Below are positions 132-14,744 of a stretch of 64,000 nucleotides of DNA, piece after piece; positions within the stretch are counted from its first letter, which is position 1, and each line of letters opens with the position of its first letter. The stretch spans positions 1 through 64,000 of IMG/VR virus record IMGVR_UViG_3300029923_000015; one strand, given 5' to 3'. Made by a program: the position numbers and the translations under genes. The stretch is from a virus. Under the pieces are notes generated by a model that was not told where the DNA came from, did not search any database, and was given only the letters and a program-made list of their open reading frames with translations.

Positions 132-437
132 CTATTTTATGCCGCCAAACAGGGCTTTGTGTTTTAATTCCCAGTAGTTTTTACGTTCTTCTTTTGTGGC
201 TTTTCTTACTTCGGATACTTCTTCGTGCCATAGTCCATTTTCTTTTGGATATGTTTTATGCATCCCATTTGAATTGCTCCATCCCAAGCCACTTAATGGA
301 GATATCAGTATATTCGAATTGGTAACTCTGGTTCTTCTAATTACAGCCAATCCTTTGTCTACACTCATAATTATCATTCCGACACGTGCTTGTATTCCGT
401 CAGACATTATTCTAGGTATTGCTTTCTGTCTTTTCAT
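132..437 (-). CDS. hypothetical protein (101 aa)
   Basis: ORF in the minus-strand block with an AT-rich leader; no recognisable motif. Confidence 0.6.
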   Translation of the reverse strand: MKRQKAIPRIMSDGIQARVGMIIMSVDKGLAVIRRTRVTNSNILISPLSGLGWSNSNGMHKTYPKENGLWHEEVSEVRKATKEERKNYWELKHKALFGGIK

Positions 438-2298: not shown

Positions 2299-2706
2299 GA
2301 ATTGTCTAAATTAGCCTTTAGAATGAGCTTCTATTAGCGTAAAAGTAGGATAGAATGTGGTCGAGTGCCCAATAGCTGTCTGTATTGCATTGCTGTATCC
2401 TATATCATTACATAGGCAGCATGACTGCAACACTATGCTTATTCTTATTACTAACTTAGTATAATGCTCAATCACATGCATCATGCATATGCAGAGAGAG
2501 TGGCAGTGCTGTACTAGCTCCATAGGTGTCTAAACCAATGTCTAAGTCTTAACTCGACAAAGTGTTCCTAACACTGCCCTAATGATTGTATGAGAGCAGT
2601 CTTACCATCATTATAGTAAGAATACTTGTCCGATCTTGATCGATTCAGACGAATAGACGGGGGACTTCCATCCCACTTCGTTACCCCGGGAGCTTGACAT
2701 AGACAG

Positions 2707-2810
2707 TTTCACGCACGCACATATGTCATCAATTTTTTATTTTACCAAAAATTTTTCATTTCACGCGGTCATACATGTGATTAATTATTTTTTTTAGAAA
2801 ATTTTTTACA
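2707..2810. repeat. two imperfect 52-bp tandem repeats with A/T tracts at the strand switch (candidate packaging or origin site)
   Basis: TTTCACGC..CA.A.ATGT.AT.AATT..TTTT..AAAATTTTT starting at 2707 and 2759; GC-rich GGGGG/CCCCGGG segment just upstream. Confidence 0.6.
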
Positions 2811-2816
2811 ACACTG

Positions 2817-2847
2817 ACAACAAATTATAGGTTAATACGTTTATATA
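2817..2847 (+). promoter_or_regulatory. putative phage promoter ACAAC-N14-TACGTTTATATA
   Basis: Identical motif and spacing recurs at 4666-4696; both copies lie at the start of plus-strand units. Confidence 0.6.
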
Positions 2848-3210
2848 GTCGATGCCAGTCTCCAAAGGCTGAATCACCCTAAGGTAATCAAATAAGGGTT
2901 AGACATCGGATTATAATAGATTAACAGAGGACGTATATAAAGGTAGTAGGTGAGTACTTAAATGAGATAAAGGTCAAGCGCCAAACTCTATGCATTTATA
3001 GTCAATAAAAGGCCGTTAGTTAGTCTATTAGTTTTCTCCGGTAGTATCAAAAGATTAAGAGTACAAGTTAAATGCTGCTGCTAGAAATAGCTAAGAAGGA
3101 GAGATTGCGATAGGCAGATGGGTGAAACCGAAAGGTTACGTACGGGTTTAACGAGGAAGTTAATTGAAAACAAACCGAATAATGGCCGGTCTCAAGGGGT
3201 AAACTATGTT
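2843..3210 (+). ncRNA. candidate large structured ncRNA (~370 nt)
   Basis: No credible ORF; stems 2914-2925/3019-3030, 3031-3039/3098-3105 and 3040-3047/3072-3079; GAAA tetraloops at 3080-3091 and 3126-3137; long-range pair 3011-3018/3180-3187. Confidence 0.65.
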
Positions 3211-3298
3211 CAATTGATAAATAAAAACTAAGAGAAGTAAAACAAAGGCTGTTATAATTACGTTTATATTAATATGATGGAGCTCAAACAATGTTATC

Positions 3299-3490
3299 AT
3301 GACACTAATAGACGAATCAATAGTCTTTGTAATAGCTATCTGTATAGGGTATGCTCTACATCCGTTAATAAATAGTATGATACTATTACTAGCAAATGCT
3401 ATTATGAGGCAAATGTGGAGATTTAATTCATTATTAAACAAGTTAAAAGAGGATGGATTACAGCACCGAATTAGCAATAAGGATAAATAA
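3299..3490 (+). CDS. small membrane protein
   Basis: Hydrophobic N-terminal half and basic tail; follows a TACGTTTATA element at 3259. Confidence 0.45.
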   Translation: MTLIDESIVFVIAICIGYALHPLINSMILLLANAIMRQMWRFNSLLNKLKEDGLQHRISNKDK

Positions 3491-3507
3491 CGCATTAGAC
3501 AAGTTAT

Positions 3508-4095
3508 ATGGAAAGTGATATAGATGATATAACTAAGGTTTCAAATAGGCATAAAGAAGAATATTTAAAAACAGAAAGCTCCAAATGGGCTGTATTAAAC
3601 ATAGGGAATATAGTAAATACAATATACGGTGGAGAATTAAAACCAATAAAAAGAGGAAAAATGGAAGAAGTAAATGATTATACAGTAAATGTCCAAGAGC
3701 AATTAACTATTGAAAACGTGGATAACACTATATTGGCAAACGCAGTGGCTAATAATGTAGGATACGAGTTCGCAAATATGATACTTGTAAAGCCAATGGA
3801 AATAGAAAAGGTCACAAAGACCCTAACTGTACCAGAGGACTCAGGAGAGAAGAACGAAGAAGGTGAACCAATTATGCAAATGACAATCAAAGATGTCGTT
3901 ACAGAGTCCCTATTGCGTAAGGGCACCATTATATCTATACCTGCATCATTACGGGTAACGGAATATAAAGATGGGCTGCTTCATTTGAACATAGGGGATG
4001 TAATTGTATTCCCAAATAAACGTTCAATTGATTTTGACCTGCTTAAAGACTCATTATTAGTACCTTACTACGAAGTATTAGCAAGAACGGTATAA
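3508..4095 (+). CDS. GroES-like protein (start may be 3661)
   Basis: ILVKP...RKGTIISIP...IGDVIVF...LLVPYYEVLA matches the GroES-like pattern seen in crAss-like phages. Confidence 0.6.
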   Translation: MESDIDDITKVSNRHKEEYLKTESSKWAVLNIGNIVNTIYGGELKPIKRGKMEEVNDYTVNVQEQLTIENVDNTILANAVANNVGYEFANMILVKPMEIEKVTKTLTVPEDSGEKNEEGEPIMQMTIKDVVTESLLRKGTIISIPASLRVTEYKDGLLHLNIGDVIVFPNKRSIDFDLLKDSLLVPYYEVLARTV

Positions 4096-4568
4096 TGAAA
4101 GATGTATTGAACGCCTGGTGCGACGGAGCTTGCGCTGGCAACCCAGGCCCAGGCGGATTTTCGGCAGCAATAATATTCAAAGACTCTACTATATCTTTTT
4201 ACTCTGGCTACAGTGAGTATACTACAAACAATAGAATGGAACTAAATGGTTTTATACAGGCCATTAGATTAGTCTTAAATGAAGTATATAATGGATTTAG
4301 TGGAGAAGTAATAATACACACAGACTCTAAATATATAGAGAACGCTATCAATTGCGGGTGGTTAGATAAATGGGCAAGAAAAGGATTTGTTAAGATAAAA
4401 AATCCAGACTTATGGCAAGAGGTATATACCGTGATAAGTAAATGCGAATTTATAACTGTTAAATGGGTGAAAGGGCATTCAGGCATAATAGGAAACGATA
4501 TAGTAGATAGATTAGCCGTAGAAGCTATGAATTTAAAAAGAACTAGTGGGGGTGTAATGGAAATTTAA
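4095..4568 (+). CDS. rnhA: ribonuclease HI
   Basis: DGACAGNPGPGG, TTNNRMEL, HTDSKY, KNPDLW, WVKGHSG..GNDIVDRLA motifs all present. Confidence 0.95.
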   Translation: MKDVLNAWCDGACAGNPGPGGFSAAIIFKDSTISFYSGYSEYTTNNRMELNGFIQAIRLVLNEVYNGFSGEVIIHTDSKYIENAINCGWLDKWARKGFVKIKNPDLWQEVYTVISKCEFITVKWVKGHSGIIGNDIVDRLAVEAMNLKRTSGGVMEI

Positions 4569-4665: not shown

Positions 4666-4696
4666 ACAACCTTTTTCATTTAAATACGTTTATATA
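4666..4696 (+). promoter_or_regulatory. putative phage promoter, second copy
   Basis: ACAAC-N14-TACGTTTATATA immediately after a terminator and before a gene run. Confidence 0.6.
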
Positions 4697-10816: not shown

Positions 10817-10900
10817 GGAATTAAGTTGTAGAATCATTAACTGCTAGTAAAACAAATTAAATTAAACAACGTTTAGAATACTAAACAATAATTATTGATT

Positions 10901-11259: not shown

Positions 11260-11296
11260 CTCCCTTAGCAATTTAACCAATTGTTCTAAGGGAGTT
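11260..11296 (+). promoter_or_regulatory. hairpin upstream of terL
   Basis: CTCCCTTAGCAATT/AATTGTTCTAAGGGAG inverted repeat. Confidence 0.5.
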
Positions 11297-11315
11297 ATTG
11301 GTATATATAAAGAGC

Positions 11316-14300
11316 ATGATAGATTTTAATAAAAAAATAAAAAATAGCGAAAAATTTAGAGCGCCAGCAATTTTTTTCCAAAAACATGGACTATACTGTT
11401 TTTCCCCATATGGAACTACTGAGTATCTAACCTATTGGGATACTGAGGCCATTAGATGCGTAGAAGGATATACTGCCCCTGATGGGGATTGGATAAGTGG
11501 GTATAATTATTTTTACTTAAATTATTGTCCGATACTTAGATTAGTCGAATTTGAATATAAGGATAGGTTTGGTAACATGAAGATGCGCAGAGAAAAGGCT
11601 AGGAAATTTCCTGACTTTTATGATTATGACTACTATTACTTTATGGGCGTTCAGGAAGCGCAAGAGGAAGGTGCTCACATGGCAGTTTTAAAGGCTCGTG
11701 GTAAAGGTTTTTCGTTTAAAGGAGGATCGATGCTCGATAGAAATTATTATCTGATACCAGACTCTAAAGGCTATGCAATTGCATCTGAAACTGAATATTT
11801 AGTTAGAGATGGTCTACTTACGAAGGCCTGGGATTACATGGACTTCATAGATGAACATACTGCATGGGCGAAAAAACGTCAGGCTATTAATACAAAGATG
11901 CATAGAAAGGCTTCTATTATTACTACAGATGAAATGGGTAATAAAATAGAGGTTGGTTATAAGTCTGAGATAATTGGAGTATCATTAAAGAATGATCCCA
12001 ATAAGGCTCGTGGTAAACGTGGTCAACTAATCCTATGGGAAGAGGCAGGATCGTTCAAGGATATACTTCAGGCGTGGCAGATAGCTAGACCTTCTGTAGA
12101 AGAAGATGGTAAAGCTTATGGTCTAATGATAGCATTTGGGACTGGTGGTGATGAAGGTTCTAGATTTGATGGACTGAAAGAAATGTTTTATAATCCATCT
12201 GGATATAATATAAAATCGTTTCCAAACATATGGGATGAAGGGGCTGATGCAAATCAATGTGCTTTTTTTGTTCCTGTATACGCCAATATGTCTGTACTAG
12301 ATGAAAATGGACATAGAATGTTTATGGATAAGAATGGTAATAGTCTTAAGACTAAAGCTGTTGATTATGCCATGACCGAGCGCAAGAAAGTAGTTGACGG
12401 ATCCTCTGACTCAAGGGCTATTGATAGGTATATTGCAGAGAACCCTATAACTCCTCAGGAAGCTGTTTTAGAACTCACAGGGAACATATTCCCTAAGAAG
12501 GAATTAATGGTACAGTTGGCCTCAATACGTACAAATAAGAAGCTACAGGCATATAAGCAGGTCGGTGATTTGAATTATGTTAATGGAATATTGAGTTGGG
12601 AAATAAAACAAAAAGGAGATATAACTAAATACCCATTAGGTAGAGACGATAAGCATGAAGGATCAATAGTAATATGGGAACACCCATCACAAGACACATC
12701 AGGGCAATTATACATAGCGGGGTGTTTATTACCAGGAGAGCAAGTAATTACTGACTATGGATTAAAAAACGTAGAAGATGTATCATTTGAAGATAAATTG
12801 ATAAATGAAGATGGATTGGAAAAGAGTATCGTAAATCTACAAAGATATGAAAAAGTAGATGAACCTATATTTAAAGTAAAACCAAATGGATCTTTTAGGA
12901 CTACGACGTTTACTCAAGAGCATCCTATATTATTAGATTCTGGATTCAAAAAAGCATCTGAATTAAAGAAAGGAGATGTACTTAAAATACCAAATAGATA
13001 TATAGATAGTAATAATAATTATATAGATATTATATCTAAATATTTTACAGAGGATTTTAATTACAATGATCCATTATTTTGGTGGTTTCTAGGTATATGG
13101 ATAGGAGATGGTTTTAATAATAAGAATAGTCAATCTCATGATATATATGTTGCATTTGGAATCAAACAAATTGAAGAAGCAAATTTTTATAAAAACGTAG
13201 TTTATTCATTGTTCCATAGAAAAACATTAGTTTGTGTTAAAAATGGTGGAAATACTACTAGGTTTACTTATAAAATATTATATGATTTCTTAGAGAATGA
13301 ATTTGGTAGATATTCATATGGAAAAAGAATTCCAGAATGGGTTAAATATGCACCAGAAGAATTAAAAAAATATTTTATATCTGGATATTTAGATTCAGAT
13401 GGATCTGCATATTTTGATAAAGGAAAATTAAGAGTATCATTTACTAGTATAAATTTAACATTACTAGAGTCTATCCAAGATATTTTATATTCAATGAAAA
13501 TTAGAAATAGTATAGTCAGACACTCAAAAGAAGGTATATCTATATTTAATAATAAAGAATATAAACACAAAGAATCATATAAGGTATCAATTCCAACATC
13601 AGAAATAAAAAAAATATTGCCACTAGATCTTAGTATACTAAATAGCAGAAAAATTAATGAAATAGAGAAATACTCATCGTCTTTACCCAGAAACACCGTA
13701 GAGAAAGCAGTAGTCTACTTCGTGAACAAATACATATTCCTTAAAATAGAGAATATAGCAGAATCAAAATACACTGGTACTGTTTATAACTTTGAATGTG
13801 ATACACACACATATATGTGTAGGAATATCGTCACACACAATTGTGACCCGTTGACAAACTAGCGGTGCGATGTATGTCGTAAGAATTGAGCAAAATCGGT
13901 GAAAGTCTCTAGTAGAAAACACCGAGGTAAATAATTAGATTTCGAAAGGCTAATTATCACCGTAACGCGTAGCAGATGAATAAATATAATTCTGCCAAGA
14001 GTGCTCGACAAGAATCAAACTTGATAATGTACGCTGAGCTATATGGCGACATATAGAAGTAAGGATAAAAAGCCTTGCGATAACAAAACTGATGATCACG
14101 ATAAAGCTGGGACCAACTCATTAGGTGCTACATTTATATATAAACGTATGCAAAACTTTGAATCATATTATGATATCCTAGTTGCCGAGTATACTGGTAG
14201 ACCTGATACGGCAGAAGATTATTATGAGAATGTACGTAAATTATTACTATATTATAATGCTAGATTGCTTTATGAAAATGAACGTAAAGGTATATTTCCA

Positions 14301-14744
14301 TACTTCACACAAAAGCATTGTGATTATTTGCTAGCGGATCAACCTGATATTATAAATGATATTATAGGCAAGTCTACAGTACAAAGACGAAAAGGCATCC
14401 ATATGAATACCCAAATAAAGGATTATGGGGAAGGTCTTATTAAGGAGTATCTTAATGAGGAATTTGCTCCCGGTAAAAAATGTCTTACTACTATTCTGTC
14501 AGAACCTTTACTAGAAGAGTTAATACAATATAATGATAAAGGTAATTTTGACCGAGTAATAGCACTTATTATGGTCATGATATATAGGCAGCAACTACAC
14601 AATATGCATGTGAAGAAAAAGAATATAGAAGTAAGAAAAAATATACTCTTTAATAAACCATTATTCGGCAAAGAGTGGTGGGATTCAAATGATAGCGGCC
14701 TAGAAGAAATAACAAAAAATTCAATAGATATAAATTGGAATTAA
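11316..14744 (+). CDS. terL: terminase large subunit, join(11316..13851,14092..14744); contains an intein
   Basis: LKARGKGFS and LILWEEAG ATPase motifs; removing the intein and intron restores YIAG-CDP-Y-DHDKAGTNSLG; C-terminal GNFDRVIAL; lies upstream of portal; mature protein 689 aa. Confidence 0.93.
12723..13841 (+). mobile_element. intein with LAGLIDADG homing endonuclease (373 aa)
   Basis: Starts CLLPGEQV, block B FTQEHPI, LGIWIGDG and FISGYLDSDG motifs, ends VYNFEC...VTHN followed by +1 Cys. Confidence 0.95.
13852..14091 (+). mobile_element. group I intron, ORF-less, 240 nt (IA-like, with P7.1)
   Basis: 5' exon ends CCGU and pairs with IGS GCGG(13862-13865) via U-G; P3 GAGCA/TGCTC; P4 TCGGTG/CACCGA; P7 GCGTA/TACGC; P9 CTATATG-GCGA-CATATAG; terminal G at 14091; splicing restores frame (T+AT = Tyr). 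Confidence 0.9.

Follow-up and report, generated by a model that had tools for sequence, protein, structure and literature searches.

An uncatalogued structured RNA family of crAss-like phages

Positions 2851-3218, on the plus strand of the DNA analysed here, almost certainly form a real structured RNA gene. That DNA, which we call the window, is the first 64 kb of the 78.7-kb IMG/VR record IMGVR_UViG_3300029923_000015. The RNA gene, delimited by nhmmer and covariance model matches, is ~368 nucleotides (nt) long in the window and ~290 nt long in the short-form members of its family, and conservation stops near 3218. What is new is an uncatalogued family of structured RNAs in crAss-like phages, whose fold is now defined; Rfam lacks it and RefSeq does not annotate it, and it occurs in the gut phage cr118_1 and in environmental relatives. 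The crAss-like phages rank with the most numerous viruses of the human gut and are also found widely in the environment, and to our knowledge much of their early biology, including host takeover, the start of replication and the early transcripts, is still without explanation. Covariance models now allow the family to be annotated across viromes, and an object of ~300 nt has become concrete for probing, structure determination and functional tests.

A preliminary description of the window had proposed that this stretch encodes a large functional phage RNA outside the named families. The conservation of the region, the covariation in both of its domains and the lack of a match in Rfam 15 bear out that proposal, and the start of the RNA had been placed within a few nucleotides.

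Members, conservation and covariation

Loci of relatives were collected via the neighbouring GroES-like protein. Members of the family were found with nhmmer, with DNA patterns taken from the most conserved blocks and with two covariance models (CMs), each covering half of the RNA: R1 for the 3′ core and R2 for the 5′ domain. Fourteen distinct versions were found, in crAss-like phages known without cultivation, and the nhmmer and CM matches are co-linear and full-length in these 14 loci. The long form occurs in the window, L019 and L020, and the short form in L055, L026, L023, L002, L025 and L008. The 5′ domain is reduced in L011, L125 lies on a 97-kb contig, and L168 and L060 are distant crAss-like phages with a terminase 39-56% identical. 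The remaining version is that of cr118_1 (locus L175).

R1 matched the window, which was outside its seed, end to end at 3067-3152 (58.3 bits, E 4e-15), and it matched five non-seed members end to end with E values of 1e-10 to 1e-15. cr118_1 was reached only via synteny plus the CMs, with no pattern pre-selection of the matches: R2 scored 33 bits at 3317-3433, and R1 followed with 21.5 bits at 3449-3515. The RNA of cr118_1 lies in the same divergent gap as that of the window: the same promoter 11-mer precedes it, a small open reading frame (ORF), a chaperonin and RNase H come after it, and the RefSeq record carries no annotation for it.

The family was found only in crAss-like phages, which are of Suoliviridae type and mostly environmental, plus the gut phage cr118_1. 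Six other Suoliviridae genomes gave no R1 match with filters off and have only short gaps at that place. A blastn comparison of the window region and of a short-form RNA with 50,697 GenBank phages gave no match. Across the whole window, no Rfam 15 family was reported at gathering thresholds, including ARRPOF, ROOL, GOLLD, HEARO, tmRNA, RNase P RNA, group I and group II introns, pRNA and riboswitches. When E values up to 10 were admitted near the site, two unrelated chance matches appeared, both outside the RNA, and the homologs L125, L039 and cr118_1 had no Rfam match. ARAGORN found no tRNA or transfer-messenger RNA (tmRNA) in the window, the genome or the homolog loci, and recovered the tmRNA of the crAss-like Cellulophaga phage phi14:2 as a positive control. 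Our search of the literature on Crassvirales non-coding RNAs turned up nothing beyond a preprint on phi14:2, which is taken up below.

The region is conserved and non-coding. Over 2699-3282 the window is 83-84% identical to L019 and L020, and over the RNA proper it is 87-88.5% identical. Five flanking proteins in the same two loci are 50%, 65%, 89%, 42% and 88% identical, and the minus-strand ORFs upstream in the window have no counterpart there, so that the RNA is better conserved than most of the neighbouring genes. The non-coding character follows from three observations: substitutions spread evenly over the three codon positions, with no three-base periodicity; insertions and deletions are of 1-2 nt; and the longest stop-free run in any frame is 40-65 amino acids across members. 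The stretch had been described as free of ORFs, and with no frame above 65 amino acids and no codon periodicity it is.

Selection acts at the RNA level, on the plus strand. Standard pairs fill 92.9% of the cells in the 3′ core (14 sequences), against 66.6% after shuffling, and 92.8% in the 5′ domain (8 sequences, with three long-form members left out), against 75.3%. Pairs changed on both sides number 19 of 25 in the 3′ core and 18 of 25 in the 5′ domain, and the covariation scores are 0.598 (0.170 shuffled) and 0.563 (0.243 shuffled), respectively. None of 500 shuffles for the 3′ core and none of 500 for the 5′ domain attained any of the observed measures, in a test that related sequences inflate. 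With the 3′ partner slid by 1-3 columns, only 25-48% of cells are paired in the 3′ core and 30-50% in the 5′ domain. Compensatory changes preserve pairs in ten helices; covariation among homologs, on which the preliminary description had made its proposal depend, is thus present. The RNA is assigned to the plus strand because of its frequent G-U pairs, many of which are A-C mismatches on the opposite strand, in agreement with the earlier remark that such pairs favour the plus strand.

The comparative fold

The RNA folds into two domains. P1 closes the junction of the 5′ domain, from which P2, P3 and P4-P5 extend, and Px closes the three-way junction of the 3′ domain with P6-P7 and P8. Beyond the 3′ domain come a hairpin, P10, and a G-rich tail, which is conserved. 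Each helix was checked in each member in a hand table, and a structure-blind MAFFT alignment also retains P1, P4, P6 and Px. The helices of the 5′ domain (P1, P2, P3 and P4-P5) lie at homologous positions; their assignment in the window rests on MAFFT alignments, and the R2 alignment does not span an insertion of ~100 nt found there. Both features that define the family, the 3′ three-way junction (Px, P6-P7 and P8 with GGUG...ACGUAC) and the 5′ domain, are present in the window.

P1 pairs 2851-2855 with 3044-3048, and a conserved A-run follows its 3′ strand. All five pairs form in all nine members of the structure-blind alignment. The helix is GAUAC/GUAUC in most members, with a G-U pair in the window and L020, and it is kept by double changes in L125 (GACAA/UUGUC) and cr118_1 (GAU(U)GC/GCAUC); L168 reads, by eye, GACAC/GUGUC. 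P2 (2856-2871) is a 6-bp hairpin with a CCAA loop in which six of six positions covary in the hand table, and all four of its modelled pairs show double changes. P3 (2876-2899, pairing 2876-2880 with 2895-2899) has a GNRA-type loop in most members and double changes in five of five pairs. These two hairpins had been proposed from the window as CAGTC/GGCTG and ACCCT/AGGGT, and compensatory changes maintain both. P4 pairs 2905-2910 with 3037-3042; it is 100% paired and has three pairs with double changes, and in L008 all six of its pairs are replaced and the pairing is kept.

P5 occupies 2914-3030 at a conserved helix position. In the window it is the 12-bp stem 2914-2925/3019-3030 of the preliminary description. 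The stem exists as proposed, but it closes an insertion of ~93-100 nt that occurs in the window, L019 and L020 only, and it is not maintained by compensatory changes; the other members have a hairpin of 5-6 bp in its place. The insertion also decides the fate of four pseudoknot blocks, in which the 3′ tail had been paired back into the loop of this "domain 2". The tail is present in all members and its proposed partner in three near-identical ones, and the four pseudoknots cannot be general because they depend on a clade-specific insertion. The first block forms eight of eight pairs in the window and six of eight in L019 and in L020.

Several other pairings read from the window do not survive comparison. 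The outer stem TATAGT/ATTATA forms 0-4 of 6 pairs in relatives. CGATG/CATCG shows no covariation and overlaps P4, which covaries. The helix 3040-3047/3072-3079 overlaps the covarying P1 and P6 and forms 3-7 of 8 pairs in relatives. The pairing of 3031-3038 with 3098-3105 sets a pyrimidine tract against a purine tract and is lost in L008 (three of eight pairs); it may be a tertiary or alternative contact.

In the 3′ domain, Px pairs 3067-3073 with 3146-3152 and closes the three-way junction. It occurs in about nine sequence versions, all of them paired, with double changes in seven of seven pairs. P6 (3075-3078 with 3114-3117) is 98% paired, with double changes in four of four pairs. Inside it lies P7 (3080-3091), a hairpin with a GAAA loop and double changes in five of eight pairs, followed by the purine-rich strand J7/6 (3092-3113), which is nearly invariant. 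P8 (3123-3140) combines invariant GGUG and ACGUAC flanks with a covarying upper stem, 3126-3129/3134-3137, and a GAAA loop; no other element of the family is as well conserved, and distant members were located with it. The two GAAA hairpins, at 3080-3091 and 3126-3137, had been recognised in the window beforehand, and compensatory changes preserve them.

P10 (3174-3190) pairs 3174-3177 with 3187-3190, and its seven sequence versions all pair; it was analysed by hand only and lies outside the CMs. The 3′ tail (3190-3218) consists of a pyrimidine tract, AAGGGG and a U/G-rich end, and is conserved in all members read. No partner strand for it was found among the pairings considered. Pairing of the tail G-run with the P3 or P4 strands was dropped for lack of covariation, and a helix joining the 3′ tail to the 5′ leader was dropped because it has A-U and G-U pairs only and the leader strand probably precedes the transcription start. 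J7/6 could pair with the pyrimidine tract that precedes the G-run, but this pairing is lost in L025 and L125. A CCAU/AUGG pseudoknot at P10 is absent in the window and L008 and was also set aside.

Pattern scans returned other matches as well. A scan with a 16-mer gave 28 matches, among which L055 was the sole new member and the others were known members or chance. Nearly all of 77 matches to a loose P8 pattern belong to one protein-coding motif, and L063 and L064 were rejected as members by eye. A further 20 matches to the P8 pattern in genome contigs, mostly of Pseudomonas, lack the ACGUAC frame and were taken as spurious. In L066-L084 (Pseudomonas), the 20-nt match stands at one conserved place in many genomes; lacking the ACGUAC frame and the rest of the RNA, it is probably unrelated.

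Promoter and genome setting

The promoter assigned to the RNA (2819-2846, plus strand) consists of AAC, 16 nt and CGTT, the last within the 11-mer TACGTTTATAT (2836-2846). The motif is over-represented and conserved: it is kept at the same place in aligned relatives, was read by eye in cr118_1, and has plus-strand copies at 2836, 3259 and 4685, more than in shuffled sequence. The motif of the preliminary description is real. The spacing to the RNA is conserved too, with P1 beginning 7-10 nt after CGTT in aligned members, and because of this spacing the 5′ end of the RNA is predicted at ~2849-2851, at the foot of P1. The arrangement presumably fits the -35 AAC and -10 CGT pattern of extracytoplasmic function (ECF) sigma factors, and we infer an ECF-type promoter from this likeness. 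Pfam searches of the 78.7-kb phage genome found no sigma factor and no reverse transcriptase.

A second copy of the motif (3242-3269, plus strand) stands between the RNA and the first ORF, at 3299, in the long-form clade only. Of the further copies of AAC-N16/17-CGTT, the one at 3259-3269 is ahead of the 63-amino-acid ORF and the one at 4685-4695 is ahead of the ORFs that follow RNase HI; relatives also keep the motif at these two places. A copy with one mismatch lies at ~10851-10877 on the plus strand, ~0.4 kb upstream of the terminase ORF. In L125, a clear terminator, made of a hairpin and a U-run (~150-200, minus strand as read), comes after the RNA and one small ORF, and beyond it stands another copy of the promoter 11-mer, an order that suggests a single short transcription unit made of the RNA and the small ORF.

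The terminase, portal and major capsid proteins of the window phage match crAss-type PHROGs, and its capsid protein shares 80% identity with the one encoded by cr118_1, a gut phage in RefSeq that is classified as Besingivirus coli (Suoliviridae). The RNA lies within a 780-nt gap that separates divergent blocks of minus-strand and plus-strand genes. Minus-strand genes lie to the left of ~2520, and all ORFs of at least 250 amino acids from 3299 onward are on the plus strand. The first ORF downstream of the RNA encodes 63 amino acids and is followed by a GroES-like protein, which has no Pfam match and whose relatives carry the name co-chaperonin, and by RNase HI (Pfam E 2e-29).

This order is not fixed across the family. 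The first gene downstream of the RNA varies among members. In L168 the RNA lies between two genes, downstream of a chaperonin-like gene and not beside the divergent gap, and PhoH is among its neighbours in L060. Because these placements differ, the RNA is tied neither to the divergent gap nor to one neighbour gene.

Upstream of the RNA promoter lie a GC-rich hairpin (2658-2688, with the G-run 2658-2662 pairing with the C-run 2684-2688) and two iteron-like direct repeats (2706-2730 and 2757-2780, together spanning 2706-2780) with A/T tracts between them. All three kinds of element align in ten members and were seen by eye in cr118_1, and the repeats number two or three copies across members. 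The region may serve as an origin of replication or as an array of operators for the divergent promoters. The cumulative GC skew turns near 2800, but gene orientation switches at the same place, and the turn is proof of neither.

Two further features of these genomes may be recorded here. The terminase large subunit of the window consists of two open stretches, 11277-13859 and 14028-14741, and relatives match across both; Rfam reported no group I intron at gathering thresholds anywhere in the 64-kb window. In L008, the final ~96 nt of the RNA (1150-1248) seem, by eye, to be repeated exactly at positions 1-96. This apparent partial copy stands ~1.1 kb upstream of the full RNA gene; either it is a genuine direct repeat, or strain variants produced it during assembly.

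Possible roles and known systems

We lean towards an explanation in which a structured non-coding RNA gene with its own promoter yields a free-standing, folded RNA. The RNA would be transcribed from the AAC-N16-CGTT promoter, starting at the foot of P1. It would fold compactly and serve as a protein-binding scaffold or a catalytic RNA, and it would be neither an unstructured R-loop primer nor the leader of one particular gene. That the RNA stands alone and acts in trans, as scaffold or ribozyme, seems to us nearly as probable as its opposite, because the RNA has its own promoter, a second promoter lies behind it in one clade, and the downstream genes change. Selection on structure over the full length, the GNRA loops, the two junctions and a peripheral helix that can expand all argue for an RNA that works via its three-dimensional fold. 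The two junctions carry conserved unpaired nucleotides and several of the GNRA loops recur; recurrent GNRA loops together with an expandable peripheral helix are typical of compact folded RNAs. It is conceivable, if rather doubtful, that the family represents a new class of phage RNA that folds compactly and acts in trans, as a ribozyme or as the core of a ribonucleoprotein, with a task in early infection that no protein performs. The three-way junction and the G-rich tail would then be the active or binding site, kept from gut to freshwater.

A number of points weigh against a free-standing structured RNA. The predicted stability is no better than that of shuffled sequence, an outcome that the preliminary description had named as one that would refute its proposal: the minimum free energy z score against dinucleotide shuffles is -0.04 for 2843-3210 (-0.38 for the other strand), and the fold-energy z score is +0.23 for 2851-3218 and +0.58 for a short-form homolog. 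The comparative data override this unexceptional fold energy. They carry biases of their own, as alignments made by CMs favour the structure that was modelled, and the P8 pattern, by which three distant members first came to light, inflates the scores of those members. The discrete transcript, with its 5′ and 3′ ends, is a prediction from sequence. No intrinsic terminator was found after the RNA in the window, and the RNA may share a transcript with the genes behind it and act in cis. Neither a partner protein nor a ligand or catalytic motif was identified. Finally, the RNAs of phi14:2 have no detectable homology to the window RNA; nhmmer --max gave nothing meaningful for ~2965-3590 of that phage (g004-g005), and neither R1 nor R2 matched it (L061).

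The main rival is a cis-acting 5′ leader, either a processive antitermination element or a large riboswitch, that controls RNA polymerase or the downstream genes; we regard it as unlikely. In most members the RNA heads a block of genes on one strand that exceeds 60 kb and includes the terminase, portal and capsid genes, and there is no terminator between the RNA and the next ORF, which begins ~40 nt after the RNA in L002 and ~85 nt after it in L125. A junction with conserved unpaired nucleotides also resembles those of ligand-binding or protein-binding RNAs. The HK022 put RNA and EAR offer a likeness, for in each case the RNA immediately follows a promoter and opens a very long run of co-directional genes, with no sign of a protein factor. 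However, the RNA described here measures 290-370 nt, four to five times as much as put or EAR RNA, has two domains and shows no homology to them. A leader also sits poorly with the full second promoter that separates the RNA from the first ORF in the window's clade, with a first downstream gene that differs among members, with the placement behind a chaperonin-like gene in L168, and with the lack of any conserved alternative terminator/antiterminator pairing. A region that is not an RNA gene at all, whether it codes for protein in a different frame or genetic code or acts at the DNA level, for instance as an origin, a packaging site or an array of operators, is essentially excluded. It adjoins likely DNA-level elements and its fold energy is ordinary, but stops occur in all frames of all members, indels of 1-2 nt and the lack of codon periodicity do not suit a coding region, and compensatory changes in ten helices, with G-U pairs functional on one strand only, do not suit a DNA element.

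A replication pre-primer or origin RNA, as in ColE1 RNA II and the T4 and T7 origins, is improbable. The RNA would be made from the strong promoter next to an iteron and A/T-rich origin, its G-rich 3′ tail would form a lasting hybrid with DNA, and the phage RNase HI would trim it into a primer. The GC hairpin, the two or three iteron-like repeats and the A/T tracts upstream, the skew turn, the invariant G-run in the tail and the position of RNase HI, 0.9-1.5 kb downstream in all 11 members checked, are consistent with such a role. RNA II of ColE1/pMB1 is likewise a structured RNA read towards or next to a presumed origin, and it too has a G-run towards its 3′ part and an RNase HI gene in the vicinity. 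The window RNA differs in that its structure is conserved throughout, and this selection on helices and GNRA loops over the whole RNA exceeds the needs of a primer. No RNA I counterpart has been recognised: promoter-like sites on the minus strand number 6 against 5.5 expected in a consensus scan, which is chance frequency, and the conservation of these sites was not examined. Its link to RNase H is loose. The co-occurrence of the two suggested by the preliminary description is not strict, since the relative L015 has RNase HI and lacks the RNA, and the distant member L060 carries the RNA with no RNase H found in 13.6 kb. The RNA of L168 lies away from the divergent gap, and a skew turn that is also the gene-orientation switch does not locate an origin. 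Nothing was found in favour of a packaging-associated RNA. The phi29 pRNA is also a phage-encoded structured RNA with an early-type promoter near one end of the gene map; Rfam pRNA has no match here, and phages of the window type use a crAss-type large terminase, portal and capsid.

Large orphan phage RNAs offer a parallel in kind. GOLLD and ROOL, known only from comparative analysis and structural work, are highly structured, are carried by phages and prophages, and contain numerous GNRA loops and junctions of several helices. The window RNA does not match their Rfam families, is at most half their size, belongs to another host group and has no adjacent tRNA genes.

By analogy, phi14:2 appears to be the nearest precedent, a functional and not a homologous one. 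Two long intergenic regions of this phage are transcribed above most genes from the earliest time point and persistently thereafter, with functions "to be determined"; these long non-coding RNAs are the g004-g005 and g005-g006 junctions (Drobysheva et al., bioRxiv 10.1101/2020.03.07.982082). Like the window RNA, they are promoter-driven non-coding RNAs of several hundred nt, co-directional with the following genes and within the first kilobases of a gene arm. The promoter of the first one, compared by eye, shares the core ACGTTATA and an upstream ACCTTT block with the window promoter. However, phi14:2 belongs to Steigviridae and the window phage is Suoliviridae-like, and expression of the window RNA is predicted only.

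The second long non-coding RNA of phi14:2 appears, from its sequence, to be a phage-encoded tmRNA, and it differs in this from the window RNA, which is not a tmRNA according to ARAGORN. Positions 4031-4502 (plus strand) of NC_021806, at the g005-g006 junction, score 46 bits with the Rfam tmRNA model (threshold 47, E 2.6e-16). The record is without annotation there, and ARAGORN places the tmRNA at 4031-4500, with the tag GSSVQKLAMVA.

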